DNA from: an uncultured Bdellovibrionales bacterium
GTDB taxonomy: Bacteria; Bdellovibrionota_C; UBA2361; J135
Reading direction: 5' to 3'
NCBI GenBank assembly: GCA_964523015.1
Contig: CAZFXN010000008.1
Location: 708-64,707 of the forward strand
DNA length: 64,000 nucleotides
Made by a program: the position numbers. Below are positions 33,001 through 42,000 of the stretch, piece by piece. Numbering within the stretch: position 1 is the stretch's first letter; the number at the start of each line of letters is the position of its first letter.

Positions 33001-36000
33001 AACCAATTAGAAAAAAATGGAAGGAGCACATGAGCGGAGCTCGAGATTGGCAACATTATCTTTGGGATGTGATTATGGTGCAAGCATGGCTCGAAGCATA
33101 ATGCTTAATGATGCGTGCCACTTCAATGGTAAGAACTCATCAAAATTGACACATGATAACCTTTTAATATTATGAGAAGGATTTGGGGATTAAGGGTTTA
33201 CATTATCCCTAGTACTTGTCATAAACCTTCCTAATATTAACCCGGTTAAATAAATGTTAAATGAATGATTGATGAGCAAGCTCATATAAAGCGTGTCGTT
33301 GATTCGCTATCAAGTAAGTATTGGTCCTTTAAGTATCTTGAAGGTGGCGATTGTCCAATTGATCTTTATGCCCTTTTTGCAAAAGAACTTTCACATATTC
33401 CCCTTACCTCCTGGCCAGATCGTTTTGCTTGGGGTGGCGTTTTTATTAATGGCCATGCCGCTTTAGAAAATGTGCCTCTGACTCCGCCGTGTCGCGTCGA
33501 ATATTACGAACCGAGATACGATTATTTAAATCCTGAAGATCAATTTCCACCATTTAGATCCGAATATGTTCTTTTTACTGATGGTGAGTTGGCTTTTATT
33601 TTCAAACCTTCCGGTATTCCTTGCGTCCCGGCCAGAGAGCAGCGAAAAATTAATTTTAAGGCTCAGTTAGAAGAGTATTTTCAATGCCCGATTCACATGC
33701 CTTCCCGTCTTGATACTTCAGTGTCAGGACTCATGGCGATAAGTTTAAAAGATCGTTTTCATGATCAGCTACAACGTATGTATGAAAAAAGGATGATGAC
33801 AAAACACTATCTCCTACTCGTAAAAGGGCGGCCTACTTGGGATAAGATAACTGTAGATGCGCCGATCGGGCGTGATATGAGACACGCTGTTCTTCGTAAA
33901 GTTACTGACACCGGAAAAGCAGCTATCACAGAATTTGAGCTTCTTGGTACAGGAGAATTTAAAACACAAAACGATGCCATCATCGAAGCCTCCCTTATTA
34001 AAGCAAAACCAATTACAGGTAGAACTCACCAGATAAGGATCCATGCCGCTCATTTAGGATTTCCAATTATCGGTGATAGATTTTACGGCCATGAGGATGG
34101 CTATGACGATGATGGAAACTATGCCTCAACCGTTCACCTATTAAGTTATCAACTTAAGTTTAAACGCCCCATTACCGGTGTTGAGATTGATTTTAAAATA
34201 CCCCAGGAAATGATGCCGCAATGGAGTTATCAGATACCCTTGAACATTCACAAAGACCTGACATAATCGTACCCATATGTGGACCCGTTTTTTTGAAAGA
34301 GCTTTAGTGCTCACTATATTATTGTGCATCTTTATCCCTATCTCCCTTAATCGACTTATCGCCGGGGATGAGGGATTCTATGTTTTGGCAGCAAAGTTAG
34401 TTGCCTCTGGCGATCGACTTTACTCTGATTTCTTCTATCCTCAGATGCCGCTATTGCCATGGATCTACGGAACCTGGATGCGCATGTTTGGTCCTACCTG
34501 GGAATCAGTAAGAATTCTTGCCGGAATATTCAGTGCCCTAATTGGATACTTAATTTACCTCCATCTTTTAGCTTTTAATCGAAGGTGGGCAATCTTTGGA
34601 ATTTTTCTATTTGTTACTTCAACCTTAGTATTTGCCTGGTATGGCACAGTAAAAACTTTTTCTATCTCAATTTTATTTCTGTTTAGCTCTTACTATCTAC
34701 TCGATAAAAAGTCCTCTCTTAATAGTTGGATAAAACTAGTATTGGCTGGGATTCTGTTTGGGCTCTCTGTTGAGACACGCCTTTTCTTTGCTGGATTATA
34801 TCCGATCTTCTTACTTCTGATTTTCATTCGCCCCGACCCTATGACCGGATTCTTGAAATCGGCCCTTTTATTCTCTCTTGGATGCACAATTGCACTCTTT
34901 CCCTCGATCTATCTAGCAATTTCAAACTTTGATATCTTCTACTTTAATAATCTTGGGTATCACCTTATTCGATCAGATCGAGGTGATGACGCAATGATGC
35001 GGGCAAAACTAACTATTCTTAATACTGTTTTAGGATTACGAGATTCTCATCAAATTACAGGATATCAATTACCAACACTTTTAGTTTTATCTGGCTTTTA
35101 TGCTTTTGGATCCATATTTTCAAAGACAAAGATTGATAGTGCATTTATAGTTGCTCTCGGTCTCTTTATTTTAAACTTCATACCGAGCCCCTCTTATGTT
35201 CAGTATTTTTCTACCTTAATGCCATTTCTGATTATTGGTGCAGTTTCATCGCTGTACTCTCTTTATAAGTTTTACTTACAAAACACTTATCGTCCTAAAA
35301 AAAGTCTGGCTTTTATCTCTATCTTACTATTCTCTGCAATTTTCATCACAGGATCTTATGAAGATCTTCAAAAGTATATGAAAAATGGTATCGGTGTAAT
35401 TGGAATAGGACCAGGTGATGCTCCTAATAAAACAATCTCTGCAGTTAGTGAGATTGGAGAAAAGATCTCTCAGTCAATTAATCCAAACGAAGAGGTCTTA
35501 GCCGAATGGCCAGGATTCTTAATTAATAGCACAGCTAAGCCGGTTCCTGGTTTAGAGAATAATTTTGGCTGGAAAGTCGGACATAAGATCTCTCCTGAGT
35601 TACGTAGGAAATATAAGATAATCTCACGAGATGAGATTAAAAAACTTATTCAAAATGGAGTTCCCTCATCTGTGATACTTGAAGTCAAAAGTTATAAACG
35701 AAATTATAAAAACTCAATGAATCTGTATGATATTGCCTGGAAAGATCATGGGGTGATCTTTTTTAGAAAGAAGGCTTAGGAAAAAGGCACAGGGAAAAGG
35801 CTCAAGAAAAAGACTGCTTAGAACCCTGAATCTTATTCCATTCATCTTCAAGGGCTTTAGTTATCTGAGATAGCTGAGTAATTCTCTTTTTAAGATATAT
35901 AAAACTTCCAGCTTCATGCACTTTTTGGTTTTCTGGATAGTTAAAACTAGTTGGGCTAGAGCAGATCGTTTCTTTATTTAAAAATGCTCTTAAAATGGGA

Positions 36001-39000: not shown

Positions 39001-42000
39001 TCTAAAACCTGTCTCATGGCATTTAATGAGTTAACATCGCCGTGAGTTGCTGCATAATCTGCAAATTTTGAAGATCGATTTATAAACTGATTCTGCTGCT
39101 CAATATTTAATGTCTCAAATTGAGTAAGAACTCTCTTTAGATCACTCTCTTTTAAAAATAAAACCTGAGTATCACTTCTAAAGAAACTTACTAGTTCGTT
39201 AAACTCTCTATTTTCTGGTGAAATATTTCTTTTCTCAGTTGGCGTGAGAGAACTTCCAGCAACTCCTAATGAAGCGGCAACCTCAGAAATATATTCTACC
39301 TTAGCTAAGTCATCTCTCCCTGATTGAGAATAAATCGCTCCTAAAATTGAGTGCTTCTCAACATCAATCTGCCTTAATGTTCCAGCGATATCTTCAACAT
39401 TACCGGTACTTTCATAAACTGCTTGAAGCTGTACCTTTACTCCGTCCAATGTTTCTTTCACTTCAGTAAGACACCGCTCATGTTCTTTTTCAAATTTTTT
39501 AACTAGGGCTGGATCTCTTACTCCATTTGGCAGAGATCTTTCATAAGCTAATTCCTCATGAACAGCATAATTTCTAATTGCTCTTACTTTATATAAACTA
39601 AGCCCAGTCATCTTTTGCATTAATTCAAGTTGTTGCATCCCGGTTAAGGATTGCTCTCTAAGAGCTTCTTTTAATACTTTAATACTTTGATTAATGCTGC
39701 TTTCAAATATTTCAGGTTTGTATTGAGAGAGATGATATTCAGCGTGATTCGCTAAAATTTTAGCTTCAGTTAATTTTACTTCAACAAAGAGCTGAGCACC
39801 CATGTCACGAACTCTTGGATCACTACTATTTAAAAGGTCTGCAATCCTCTTCTCTGAATCGCTTAATCCATTTAGATCCAAAGTTGCTACAATTAAATTC
39901 CGTGCTTCTAAATTTTGTGCTTTTAAATTCTGTTCGGATGTTTTTTCAAAGGTATTAACGCTCTTTAATATTCCAAGCATCTCTTCATTTTCTGAGAGCT
40001 TAACGTACTGTGCTCTCATGGCATTTAGCATCTCTTCAGCTTTCGCTCGACCCTCTATGGTCATAGGAGTATCGCTTTTAAGACTCTTTTCCACTTCAGG
40101 ATCTAAAACCATCTCAAGGGCTAAGATCTGACCCTCTAATTTTACTCTTTCAAACTTACTGCCATTTGGTGTCAGTGACAGTGAAATTTCAGTACCCTGT
40201 GGTAAGAATCCTTCCCCTTTAAGAAGAACCTCTGCTATTTCTGGATTGCTTTGAGCTAAAAGTTTTAGATGAAGTGAAGTAACATTATCTCTTGGAATAT
40301 CAAAAAGTGCAGCAGTAACAGCTATAACGGATCTCTCTTCTGTTAGAACTGCAACATTTTCAGCATCATGATTAAGACTATAATTAATTCCTCTATTTTG
40401 AAGAGTTACTCTATTAAAAAGTTCATTTCTTACATCAGAGAGAACACTCCTAATCCCATCGGCCCTCTCAGCATAAGCTCTGAGAGTTGGATCATGACTT
40501 AAGGTTGCATCAGTAACTAGCTTATCAGCCGTATCTGCAATATGACTCTTTGAAACATCACTCTTTGAAACATTACCACCTAATTCTAAAGATATTTTTC
40601 TAGCTTCATTTAACTCACCAAGATCTGAGAAAACTCTAATTAATCTAAGTGAGGTTTCACCATCACGCTCTAACTTTTGAGCTTCTTGTGCTAGTAACTT
40701 AGCTTCATCAGTTTTACCTTTTAATGTTGCTAGCTCTGCTAATGCAGTAAAACCTAATGCTCTCTTTGTGCTAAGATCTCGGCCATTAACATCAATCCTT
40801 TCAAGCTCGATCAACTCTTTTGCAAGTTTTCCGATTAATCGCTCCTCCGCAACAGGTATCAAAGTTGTAAGATTGGCCTTAGATACCCCTGTTTCTGCCT
40901 CGATCTGTTTTACTTCAGGCCAGGCATATTCTTTAAAAGAGATCGATTCGATTTTTCTTGCTTCCAAAATTGCTCTTAAATAAAGAGCCTTGGCATCTTG
41001 GTCTTGAGGATTTTTTTCTAAATATTCTGAAAGTGTGTTTGCTGCGGCAATTGCCTTTCCACGAATTCGACTCTCATCTCTTCCTTCATAAACTAAGGAA
41101 GCTGATTCCTCAGCTACGATCACTCTTAGTTCGCAATTTTTTAAAGTTATCTCTCGACTTTGCTCAAAAGGAAGTTCCGCTTTATGCGCCTTTAACAGAT
41201 CATCAAAGAGACCGACTGAGTGTTCAAGTGCACGGAGTCTAATCTCTGGTTTAAGATCAGAATCTAACCCTTGGGCTATTCCCATCTCAGCAAATTTTTT
41301 AATTCCATCGATTGGCAGTGGAAGTTTATGATCTTCCGCTGCTAAAACTGCATCAGTTACAGCTTGGGCAGTATTATCTAGATCATATTTATCTAGCTCT
41401 TTCCCCTCTTTTTTAATTTTATCAATCCGAGCAAAATATAGGTCAATTGCTAAAAGCCTATTATCGTAAAGCTCTTGTCCATAAAGAGTAACATACTCAG
41501 TTTCAACTTTATCGATTCGTTCCTCAATCTGGTCTAAACTTAATGCCCAGATTTTTTCAACTTTACGAAATTCCCTTTCTGCTAGTTCCTGCTCTGCAAA
41601 TGCACGAGATAATACAGGGCTACTCATAAGATCTTGATGTTCAGCCACTCTCTGTTTTTCTAGTTCTTCACGCTTTCTTTTTTCTTGAAGGTGAACTTCC
41701 CGTTCTATCCCAATTTCATCTTGAAGACTTTGAGCTCTTTGTGTATCCGTAACATTAAGCAAATTTGAAACGTAGGCAGGTTTTGTTTTATTTAAATCCT
41801 GCTCGTATTCAGCTTGATGCCTTCTTAAGCTCTCAACCTCCTGTTTCTGAACTGCTTCAGCAGATTTGGGATCCTGATTTTTAGATGAAGAGGTAGATAA
41901 AGAGGTAGTTGCAGAAGCGTTTGCTAGATCCGTCCCCTGCTCATTAGAGTTGGTATTTTTAAGATCAATATCTTGACGAGCCACCACTATTAAAACCTAA

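Follow-up and report, generated by a model that had tools for sequence, protein, structure and literature searches.

Glycine-zipper helices are a recurring feature of polymorphic toxins. DUF6861 (PF21724) is a Gly-zipper membrane domain that is fused to Ntox15, TNT, EndoU, and CdiA-CT toxin domains (bioRxiv 10.1101/2022.08.23.504947). Glycine-zipper segments of contact-dependent toxins are reported to act by entering the target membrane (PMC10240207, PMC10434224, PMC11630599), and glycine zippers are reported to drive translocation or pore formation by toxins of the type VI and type VII secretion systems (T6SS and T7SS) and of contact-dependent inhibition (CDI) systems (e.g., PMC10240207). Here we analyze a gene pair from an uncultured Bdellovibrionales bacterium, found in a 64-kb stretch of contig CAZFXN010000008.1 that we will call the window (all coordinates without a locus name refer to it). 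The first gene encodes a very large protein, "the giant," and the second is a small open reading frame (ORF) that probably encodes a glycosyltransferase. Like the DUF6861 proteins, the giant has an uncharged hairpin that is rich in GxxxG, and it has relatives with toxin-type C-termini, including Ntox30. In polymorphic toxins, DUF6861 is at the N-terminus; in the giant, the hairpin is central, after ~1190 residues, and is followed by a non-enzymatic tail. The giant also resembles Tde1 (T6SS), TelE/EsxX (T7SS), and the ionophoric CdiA-CT toxins, which are polymorphic proteins with marginally hydrophobic, Gly/Ala-rich zipper helices. This is a likeness without shown sequence homology, and the contact-dependent toxins have trafficking domains (PAAR/VgrG adaptors, LXG, or the CdiA stick) and immunity genes, none of which were found for the giant.

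Other systems share single features with this locus. In HMW1/HMW1C, AIDA-I/AAH, and TibA/TibC, the gene for a very large protein lies beside the gene for a cytoplasmic glycosyltransferase, and the two make up a conserved unit, as in the window. However, HMW1C, AAH, and TibC differ from the small ORF in fold and family, and the proteins that they modify carry signal peptides together with domains for autotransport or two-partner secretion. The inclusion-membrane (Inc) proteins of Chlamydiae have a bilobed hydrophobic segment of 40–50 residues with helical flanks, like the giant, but they are small type III substrates, and the giant has no homology to them and has extra hydrophobic helices. The lineage differs too, as the nearest named relative is an "uncultured Bdellovibrionales bacterium," and there are no type III genes among the ORFs scanned in the window. 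Finally, TonB and TolA have a membrane segment that is followed by an extended helix or (Glu/Lys-Pro)n spacer and then by a C-terminal domain of small size. Here the likeness is compositional only: there is no Pfam match to TonB or TolA, and the giant's cytoplasmic part is huge and is accompanied by several hydrophobic helices.

The giant and the small glycosyltransferase appear to form a two-gene operon that is conserved in a clade of uncultured Bdellovibrionales-like bacteria. At the junction (...GAC GGG TAG ATG ATT...), the start codon of the small ORF abuts the stop codon of the giant, with 0 nt between them. A preliminary description of this DNA, made from the sequence alone, had reported this TAGATG coupling, and both ORFs are located where it placed them, with the same GTG start and the same sizes of 1809 and 251 amino acids (aa). 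The public gene call for the giant (P0023) begins at the second GTG instead and is 1808 aa long. Both ORFs are far beyond what is expected by chance, as each has homologs and the pair is syntenic elsewhere. Their G+C contents (0.385 for the giant and 0.393 for the small ORF) are the same as those of the surroundings. A scan for promoters and terminators gave counts no higher than the shuffled expectation; it found no terminator between the two genes and one promoter-like site 5' of the giant's GTG (42044-42015 on the - strand).

The two genes are on the same strand and 0–23 nt apart in at least 10 contexts, so the proposal of a two-gene module is supported. Besides the window, these contexts are L004/L005, L006/L007/L008, L018, L027, L028, L029, L030, L031, and one contig from ENA; in the related loci the spacing is 14–23 nt. 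The closest homologs of the small ORF (~55% identity) each lie 14–23 nt 3' of a giant ORF or of a giant's C-terminal fragment. L029, L030, and L031 came from a metagenome scan with the giants' C-terminal domain, and each of these giants is followed by a 258-aa ORF. The giants fall into two subfamilies: those of L004 and L018 are ~40% identical to the window giant over their full length, while those of L006 and L028 are ~21% identical. The ~21% subfamily is clearly similar to the window giant only at aa 242–416 (31% identity to the L006 giant by BLASTP) and in the last ~190 residues. That the tight same-strand spacing has been kept while the giant diverged to ~21% identity suggests that the two genes have a shared function.

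Some of the genes around the pair are conserved as well. In L004, L006, L027, and L028, the small ORF is followed by a convergent PseudoU_synth_2 gene (precomputed Pfam annotation), and in L018, L029, and L031 by a convergent ORF. Upstream of the giant, the window (47261-53079) and locus L032 (1-5341) share a block of pyruvate/2-oxoacid dehydrogenase genes (E3, LplA/B, E1, and E2). Because of this shared block, we consider P0027, which is the giant of L032 (GCA_020635175.1), to be a positional ortholog despite its identity of just 34%. A pseudouridine synthase gene lies downstream of P0027 as well.

The fold of the small ORF is GT-A, and its AlphaFold model appears to settle the question. The model, which was built with our family alignment (A1), has a mean pLDDT of 94.8 and shows a single Rossmann-like α/β/α nucleotide-sugar-binding domain. 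Foldseek concurs on the GT-A fold and adds ArnC and GtrB to the similar structures. A nucleotide-sugar or GT-A-like fold had been guessed from the N-terminal sequence, and the model and Foldseek uphold that guess. Judging from the model, the structures closest to it are those of polyprenyl-phosphate hexose synthases (DPMS, ArnC, and GtrB) and of glycosyl-phosphoglycerate synthases, and the small ORF probably lies structurally between the membrane-bound polyprenyl-phosphate glycosyltransferases and the soluble glycosyl-phosphoglycerate synthases.

By sequence, the small ORF is distant from all of these. It has 22 homologs in a collection of 5.8 billion proteins. The invariant residues in A1 are D46 (in VDGGS), S49, G73, R77, E95, E97, K98, R124, Y130, P131, E138, D154, G158, Q211, and E215. 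After strand 4, where GT-A enzymes have DxD, all 21 of 21 members have E95-x-E97-K98 (T-E-P/L-E-K), which is acidic but noncanonical. The Pfam family Glycos_transf_2 (PF00535) scores 15.8 bits against the small ORF (E = 0.014), below its gathering threshold of 23.3, and matches 9 of 21 homologs at E ≤ 1 (best E = 4.1e-8). In NCBIfam, the small ORF is faintly similar to AglJ and to dolichyl-phosphate hexose transferase, at 25.9 bits for TIGR04182 (cut-off 325) and 24.5 bits for NF041391 (cut-off 375). The family profile had no significant match among PDB sequences. As measured by Kyte-Doolittle hydropathy over 19-residue windows (KD19), the small ORF reaches at most 0.99, and it has no transmembrane (TM) segment; the sole candidate for a membrane anchor is an amphipathic C-terminal helix (aa 219–250). 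Unlike the GT2-family enzymes DPMS (5mlz), ArnC (8vxh), GtrB (9nyc), and archaeal AglJ, the small ORF has no TM segment and has E-x-E in place of DxD; its identity to these is 12–17%, and its scores are far under the family cut-offs. It has no sequence-family match to the soluble GT-A enzymes GpgS and MpgS (glucosyl- and mannosyl-3-phosphoglycerate synthases) and MGS (mannosylglycerate synthase), and its neighbors are not compatible-solute genes. The small ORF is a new, uncharacterized member of a well-known fold. It founds an uncharacterized GT-A family with an E-x-E motif that is present in Bdellovibrionales-like bacteria, in bacteria of the candidate phyla radiation (CPR), and in DPANN archaea.

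In loci L011-L026, members of this small glycosyltransferase family lie near GHMP-kinase and SIS genes, which resemble a heptose-like pathway (for example, L012 8909-12687, L022 10813-12428, and L019 2469-5620). The phyletic pattern of the family is odd, as it is centered on small-genome or episymbiotic lineages.

The giant had been described as a coiled-coil protein that is almost entirely α-helical. A crude heptad scan found coiled-coil-like sequence only at aa 827–882 and 1542–1621, or 136 residues in total (38 ± 34 in shuffled sequences). Outside of these two segments, there is a Pro or Gly every 35 residues or less over almost the whole chain. We used AlphaFold to model aa 870–1430, given an alignment with 23 relatives. 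In this model, aa 870–1180 are stacked helix hairpins (pLDDT > 90), and we can confidently predict that they fold as a TPR-like solenoid. The coiled-coil label fails because the part of the giant that was modeled is instead TPR-like; the claim of helicity was examined over aa 870–1430. The hydrophobic module has low confidence in the same model, which is to be expected when a membrane segment is modeled out of context.

No enzymatic domain was found in the giant by Pfam or NCBIfam, in agreement with the preliminary description. NCBIfam has no match at all, and the only Pfam match is a sub-threshold one to DUF6861. Homology to SMC or tape-measure proteins, which would have recast the giant as a known housekeeping protein, was looked for and is absent from Pfam and from the 58 relatives found with HMMER. 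There is no signal-peptide-like stretch at the N-terminus (the maximum KD19 is -0.29 in the first 60 residues), and no adhesin repeat or secretion domain was found in the giant. Overall, the giant is modular. Its N-terminal part of ~1190 residues has no signal peptide, and at least the last 310 of these residues are predicted to form the TPR-like solenoid. The hydrophobic module comes next, with the hairpin, one strong hydrophobic helix, and two weak ones, and then a tail of ~400 residues in which a coiled-coil-like helix and a Pro/Glu/Lys spacer precede the basic end domain, which is conserved and has 120 residues.

The motif at aa 553–606 has the consensus LAAA.FG.P...V...HL.LLA..NP.L....PAGT..SL..TP.G when the giant is compared to P0024, P0026, P0029-P0034, P0037, and P0042. 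A profile of this motif gave only a marginal match in the PDB, to QueA. By eye, the motif looks somewhat like LysM, but hhalign to a LysM-containing protein gave a probability of 0.3, and we rejected that assignment.

The ~45-aa bilobed Gly/Ala/Val segment that had been noticed at the center of the giant is at aa 1193–1241 (EAVGFGLGGAVGGAAAGAVIGVWFFGVGALPGAAVGGLVGVAAGTGYLK). There are no charged residues between its opening Glu and its closing Lys, and its glycines are nearly invariant over 24 relatives. Beyond this hairpin, which is all that had been noted, there is another hydrophobic helix at aa 1266–1291 and there are two weaker ones (Table 1). The giant is homologous to P0024 through aa 1461, and this includes the weaker hydrophobic segments. 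The precomputed annotation of P0023 includes PF21724. Across the family, the hydrophobicity of the module is marginal, with means of 0.66–1.23. Strong hydrophobicity appears not to be conserved among the giants that keep the tail and the glycosyltransferase: in L006 (5012-9985), L028 (4502-9982), and P0055, the central region is Gly/Ala-rich, yet the KD19 is below 1.6 everywhere.

The tail is rich in K, E, and P, as had been reported: aa 1601–1700 contain 13 prolines, and 35–43% of the residues in each 100-aa block are charged. In all five of the aligned giants, the richest 80 aa contain 14–42 dipeptides of the form [EKQ]P or P[EKQ]. The basic end domain has the consensus RRRR..GFG...F.P..I.LPGKERRKRN..Y..VE..VK...S.YSLKKRP.DKIF...VEK...VDYE...VEKF.FV.DDDG. 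It is also found in P0026 and P0055 and, more weakly, in P0027 and P0028. Its profile has no match in the PDB.

Table 1. Features of the giant/glycosyltransferase locus and sizes of the giants in related loci. Positions are in the window; residue numbers (aa) are for the giant.
Feature	Position	Strand	Remarks
Giant gene	36558..41987	-	1809 aa, GTG start; second GTG one codon downstream
Small ORF	35802..36557	-	251 aa, ATG start; putative soluble GT-A glycosyltransferase
TAG-ATG junction of giant and small ORF	36555..36560	-	read directly from the sequence
N-terminal region, aa 242-400	40788..41264	-	conserved in both subfamilies of glycosyltransferase-linked giants; invariant columns cluster (alignment A2)
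Conserved ~55-aa motif, aa 553-606 (...AALFDIP..NV...HLKLLAQSNP...LPQGTEISL..TP.G)	40170..40331	-	shared with distant high-GC relatives
TPR-like α-solenoid, aa 870-1180	38448..39380	-	predicted (AlphaFold model); directly before the hydrophobic module
Bilobed Gly/Ala/Val glycine-zipper hairpin, aa 1193-1241	38265..38411	-	KD19 peak 1.76
Third hydrophobic helix, aa 1266-1291	38115..38192	-	KD19 peak 1.81; hydrophobicity kept across the family
Two weaker Ala/Gly-rich hydrophobic segments, aa 1330-1356 and 1375-1397	37797..38000	-	KD19 1.34-1.41, family means 0.66-0.81
Coiled-coil-like helix, aa 1542-1621	37125..37364	-	heptad scan; holds the longest stretch without Pro or Gly (70 aa)
Pro/Glu/Lys-rich spacer, aa ~1615-1685	36933..37145	-	composition like the TonB spacer
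Basic C-terminal domain, aa 1689-1809	36561..36923	-	25 invariant columns in six sequences (alignment A4)
RluD-type pseudouridine synthase gene	33265..34266	+	Pfam; conserved synteny anchor downstream of the pair
PMT_2-family GT-C glycosyltransferase gene	34277..35779	+	Pfam E = 5.6e-9, multiple TM segments; convergent, 22 nt from the small-ORF stop
L004/L005			giant of 1708 aa
L006/L007			giant of 1657 aa
L008			C-terminal fragment of giant at contig cut
L018 ("uncultured Bdellovibrionales bacterium")			giant of 1733 aa
L028			giant of 1826 aa
ENA contig			giant of 1941 aa
L027			C-terminal fragment of giant (682 aa) at contig cut

To judge by similarity searches, the giant belongs to a rare, unnamed family. 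Word-indexed searches with the single sequence or with a 5-sequence profile found only the giant itself and P0024, and even the syntenic giants were out of their reach. An exhaustive HMMER search with aa 230–1429 against 1.84 billion representatives (E ≤ 1e-3) found just 58 relatives. Beyond the close giants, these relatives have 74 to 3128 residues (most have at least 584), and many have the amino-acid composition of high-GC organisms. Most of them share aa ~870–1410, which is the TPR-like region and the Gly-zipper module, and often the motif at aa 553–606 too. The giant is unannotated in Pfam and NCBIfam, and our literature search gave no paper that describes it. A tblastn search of a plasmid collection with the hydrophobic module had no match.

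The C-termini differ within the family. DUF6861 matches 13 of 36 relatives of the giant (best E = 6e-9). P0061 ends in Ntox30 (E = 2e-16), a toxin domain that is known from polymorphic toxin systems and is predicted to be an RNase (PMC3482391), and a 141-aa ORF without a Pfam match lies 8 nt downstream. This protein, from a contig of JGI 3300050046, has TPR repeats, the Gly-zipper module, Ntox30, and then the 141-aa ORF, which is the classic layout of a toxin and its immunity gene; P0061 is the only relative that is followed by such an immunity-like ORF. P0044 has a C-terminal transglutaminase-like peptidase domain. Several other relatives have HExxH or His/Cys motifs, which were seen by eye only and were not confirmed by any profile. 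P0030, P0031, P0047, P0060, and P0062 have a Pro/Glu-rich linker and a Lys/Arg-rich tail, as in the window giant. At the level of the family, then, there seem to be a conserved core and varying C-termini, as in polymorphic toxins. The conserved N-terminal and central regions with a swappable C-terminal end fit the pattern of a polymorphic effector, and the architecture of the giant is a new variation on the general theme of Gly-zipper polymorphic proteins.

Among the explanations that we considered, we rank first, but only tentatively, that the giant is an effector-like scaffold that inserts into membranes, bears a payload without enzymatic activity, and has a clade-specific glycosylation partner. 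We infer all functions here from the sequence, the predicted structures, and the gene context. In our proposal, the conserved core would serve to deliver or present the C-terminal end: the Gly-zipper module would enter a lipid bilayer and carry or expose this end on the far side, as in polymorphic toxins, and in the window's clade, the payload would be the non-enzymatic spacer and basic domain. The hydrophobicity of the module is no more than marginal across the family, and the sister subfamily has lost it. We therefore prefer a module that enters a target (prey) membrane, or that enters membranes conditionally, to one that resides permanently in the inner membrane of the producer. It is rare for permanent membrane proteins to lose their anchors, and conditionally inserting domains are typically Gly/Ala-rich and of borderline hydrophobicity. 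The preliminary description had likened the giant to membrane-inserting effectors. Support for this is indirect, as it comes from distant relatives with the Gly-zipper core that carry toxin-like or peptidase-like C-termini.

We speculate that the glycosyltransferase is a clade-specific accessory to this effector-like scaffold. Most likely, it would supply a sugar for the giant's Ser/Thr/Pro-rich tail or for the envelope where the giant acts, either directly or via a lipid-linked donor for GT-C enzymes, of which the PMT_2 protein encoded next door is an example. Each gene is also found without the other, which implies that the link is clade-specific and dispensable.

Several observations weigh against the reading of the giant as an effector-like scaffold with a glycosylation partner. 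The match of DUF6861 to the giant (aa 1199–1241) scores 24.3 bits, below the cut-off of 28, and covers just 43 of the 194 profile positions (44–86). In the sister subfamily (L006, L028, and P0055), the maximum KD19 is 1.27–1.44, and no segment is of TM grade. Pfam, NCBIfam, and a profile search of the PDB found no toxin or enzyme domain in aa 1430–1809 of the giant, and Pfam and NCBIfam found no known trafficking domain in it. Neither the giant nor the ORFs that we scanned in the window (most of those of at least 150 aa) contain a secretion signal or represent a secretion-system gene. The neighborhood of the giant is not a variable island: it consists of housekeeping genes that are vertically inherited, such as the pyruvate dehydrogenase genes and the rluD-like gene. 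The gene downstream of the giant encodes a GT-A enzyme, not a typical non-enzymatic immunity protein, and P0044 and P0027, two relatives with a readable downstream flank, have no same-strand gene directly downstream (the contig of P0032 stops at the gene itself).

The role of the glycosyltransferase is the weakest link, and that it modifies the giant is pure inference. The preliminary description expected the small ORF to be conserved beside the giant. In the close clade it is, but P0027 has no copy of the small ORF within 17 kb, and a homolog in L009 (50% identity) has no giant beside it. A tblastn search for the small ORF in L032, L003, L033, and L034 found no copy; a 256-aa ORF of L032 was considered as a displaced copy and ruled out (E = 0.82). 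More distant homologs of the small ORF (28–40% identity) are found in DPANN archaea, CPR bacteria, and gammaproteobacterial metagenome-assembled genomes (MAGs), with no giants, and their neighbors include genes for GHMP kinase, SIS, GT9, GT2, GT4, and GDP-mannose dehydratase. Also, the PMT_2 gene is adjacent to the pair in the window only. It is absent from this position in L004, L006, L018, and L028, and it seems to have been inserted between the pair and the pseudouridine synthase gene. GT-C genes nearby are nonetheless the one indirect hint that the small ORF might transfer a sugar from a nucleotide sugar to polyprenyl phosphate: besides the PMT_2 gene of the window, L010 has two PMT_2 genes and GtrA near its homolog of the small ORF, and L004 has a GT87 gene at a distance of 7 kb from the pair.

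The main rival, which we consider possible but somewhat unlikely, is that the giant resides in the inner membrane as an envelope scaffold. Its N-terminus would be cytoplasmic, it would have three (or five) membrane spans, and its C-terminus would be outside. A cytoplasmic TPR platform would then be linked across the membrane to a coiled coil that spans the periplasm and to a Pro-rich spacer like that of TonB/TolA. At the far end, the basic domain would contact peptidoglycan or the outer membrane, and the glycosyltransferase would serve envelope glycan synthesis at the platform. The lack of a signal peptide, together with TM-grade hydrophobicity at the hairpin and the third helix only, would indeed put the C-terminus outside, and every giant has the Pro/Glu/Lys spacer before its end domain. 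This rival would also suit the conserved housekeeping position beside a gene for a PG_binding-plus-lysozyme protein and the lack of an immunity gene, trafficking domain, or secretion system, and TPR domains are typical assembly platforms. It sits poorly with the sister subfamily, which has no TM-grade segment and yet keeps the tail and the glycosyltransferase, with the marginal mean hydrophobicity of the module across the family (0.66–1.23), and with the toxin-like or peptidase-like ends of relatives. Nor does the giant have sequence similarity to TonB or TolA domains. As a resident scaffold that spans the envelope, the giant would couple a cytoplasmic TPR platform to the cell surface in an unusual way.

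It is also conceivable, but unlikely, that the two genes are neighbors by gene order only. In that case, the glycosyltransferase might act in general glycan or compatible-solute synthesis, for instance as a soluble enzyme similar to GpgS or MpgS, and soluble small-molecule glycosyltransferases are indeed among its structural neighbors. Homologs of the small ORF without a giant (28–50% identity; L009, L010, DPANN, CPR, and gammaproteobacterial MAGs) sit in clusters for sugar-nucleotide and glycan synthesis, and L032 has an ortholog of the giant without the small ORF. On the other hand, the gap of 0–23 nt has been kept in at least 10 contexts despite divergence of the giant to ~21% identity and changing flanks, and the pair has no further glycan gene as a conserved neighbor.

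A bolder form of the effector proposal is that the TPR and Gly-zipper core defines an undescribed class of self-inserting giant effectors, with which predatory or host-associated bacteria would carry variable C-terminal payloads across a target membrane without known secretion adaptors. The Bdellovibrionales-like payload would be the spacer and basic domain, matured by a dedicated GT-A enzyme. We think that this is improbable as it stands. If it were true, bacterial predators would have in the giant a weapon or attachment device of a new kind, and if the core is truly a self-contained device for insertion or delivery, it would be a new trafficking mode for polymorphic toxins. How Bdellovibrio-like predators breach or remodel the prey membrane is poorly understood at the level of proteins, and many of their largest genes are unannotated. 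Our analysis defines a conserved operon, corrects the fold assignment of both of its products, and ties the giant to a rare family.

The small glycosyltransferase could instead be the active partner of a binary system, either as an enzyme that is delivered by the giant as a "translocator" or as a factor that gives immunity to, or is an antidote against, the C-terminal domain of the giant. Large clostridial toxins and Legionella effectors have GT-A glycosyltransferases as payloads, and polymorphic toxin loci do tie a downstream gene to the C-terminal domain, as in the layout of P0061. We consider a binary system very unlikely: the small-ORF family is widespread in unrelated lineages, in clusters of glycan genes, the C-terminal domain has a relative in P0027, which lacks the glycosyltransferase, and immunity proteins are typically non-enzymatic (PMC3482391).

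That the giant is a coiled-coil surface adhesin, as the preliminary description had suggested, or a cytoskeletal filament protein is hardly credible and already largely refuted: it is large and E/K/L-rich with two heptad-like segments (aa 827–882 and 1542–1621), but the modeled 310-aa segment is a TPR-like solenoid, helix breakers recur over most of the chain, and it has no signal peptide, adhesin repeat, secretion domain, or homology to SMC or tape-measure proteins.

The pair is at the edge of a locus for extracellular polysaccharide (EPS), which spans ~13.9–33 kb of the window, as had been pointed out. A functional link between the two is unlikely because relatives carry the pair without an EPS locus nearby; the anchors of the pair are the pseudouridine synthase and pyruvate dehydrogenase genes. 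We treat the adjacency as incidental. The EPS locus itself contains two unusual fusions: a 1004-aa protein (22988-26002) that combines a Wzy_C O-antigen-ligase-like domain with a GH123-like domain, and an 882-aa protein (16546-19194) that combines a Polysacc_synt_3 flippase with GT4.

Upstream of the giant, there is a conserved gene for a peptidoglycan-binding lysozyme or glucosaminidase in the window (44206-45519, + strand), L006 (3364-4368), L028 (3260-4258), and L004 (3280-4692). Its catalytic domain varies by lineage (GH108, Phage_lysozyme, or Glucosaminidase with LysM). The gene is divergent from the giant in L006 and L028 and on the same strand in L004. In the window, two ORFs lie between the giant and this gene (PG_binding_1 plus GH108): an HNH-endonuclease-like ORF (43185-43673, - strand; G+C of 0.35) and a BPL_N-only protein (42123-43094, + strand; G+C of 0.448). 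Both look like local insertions, and relatives differ at this spot; for example, L006 has DoxX_2.

Elsewhere in the window, the G+C content rises to 0.48 at 60001-62000, compared to ~0.40 in the rest, and no rRNA, tRNA, or Rfam match accounts for the rise. Scans for Rfam families and tRNAs found nothing across the 64 kb. A HipA-family toxin kinase gene (HipA_C plus Couple_hipA) is at 1407-2666 on the - strand. A second, unrelated glycine-zipper protein is encoded at 57825-58529 on the + strand; it is an OmpA-family protein with an N-terminal Gly-zipper_OmpA segment.

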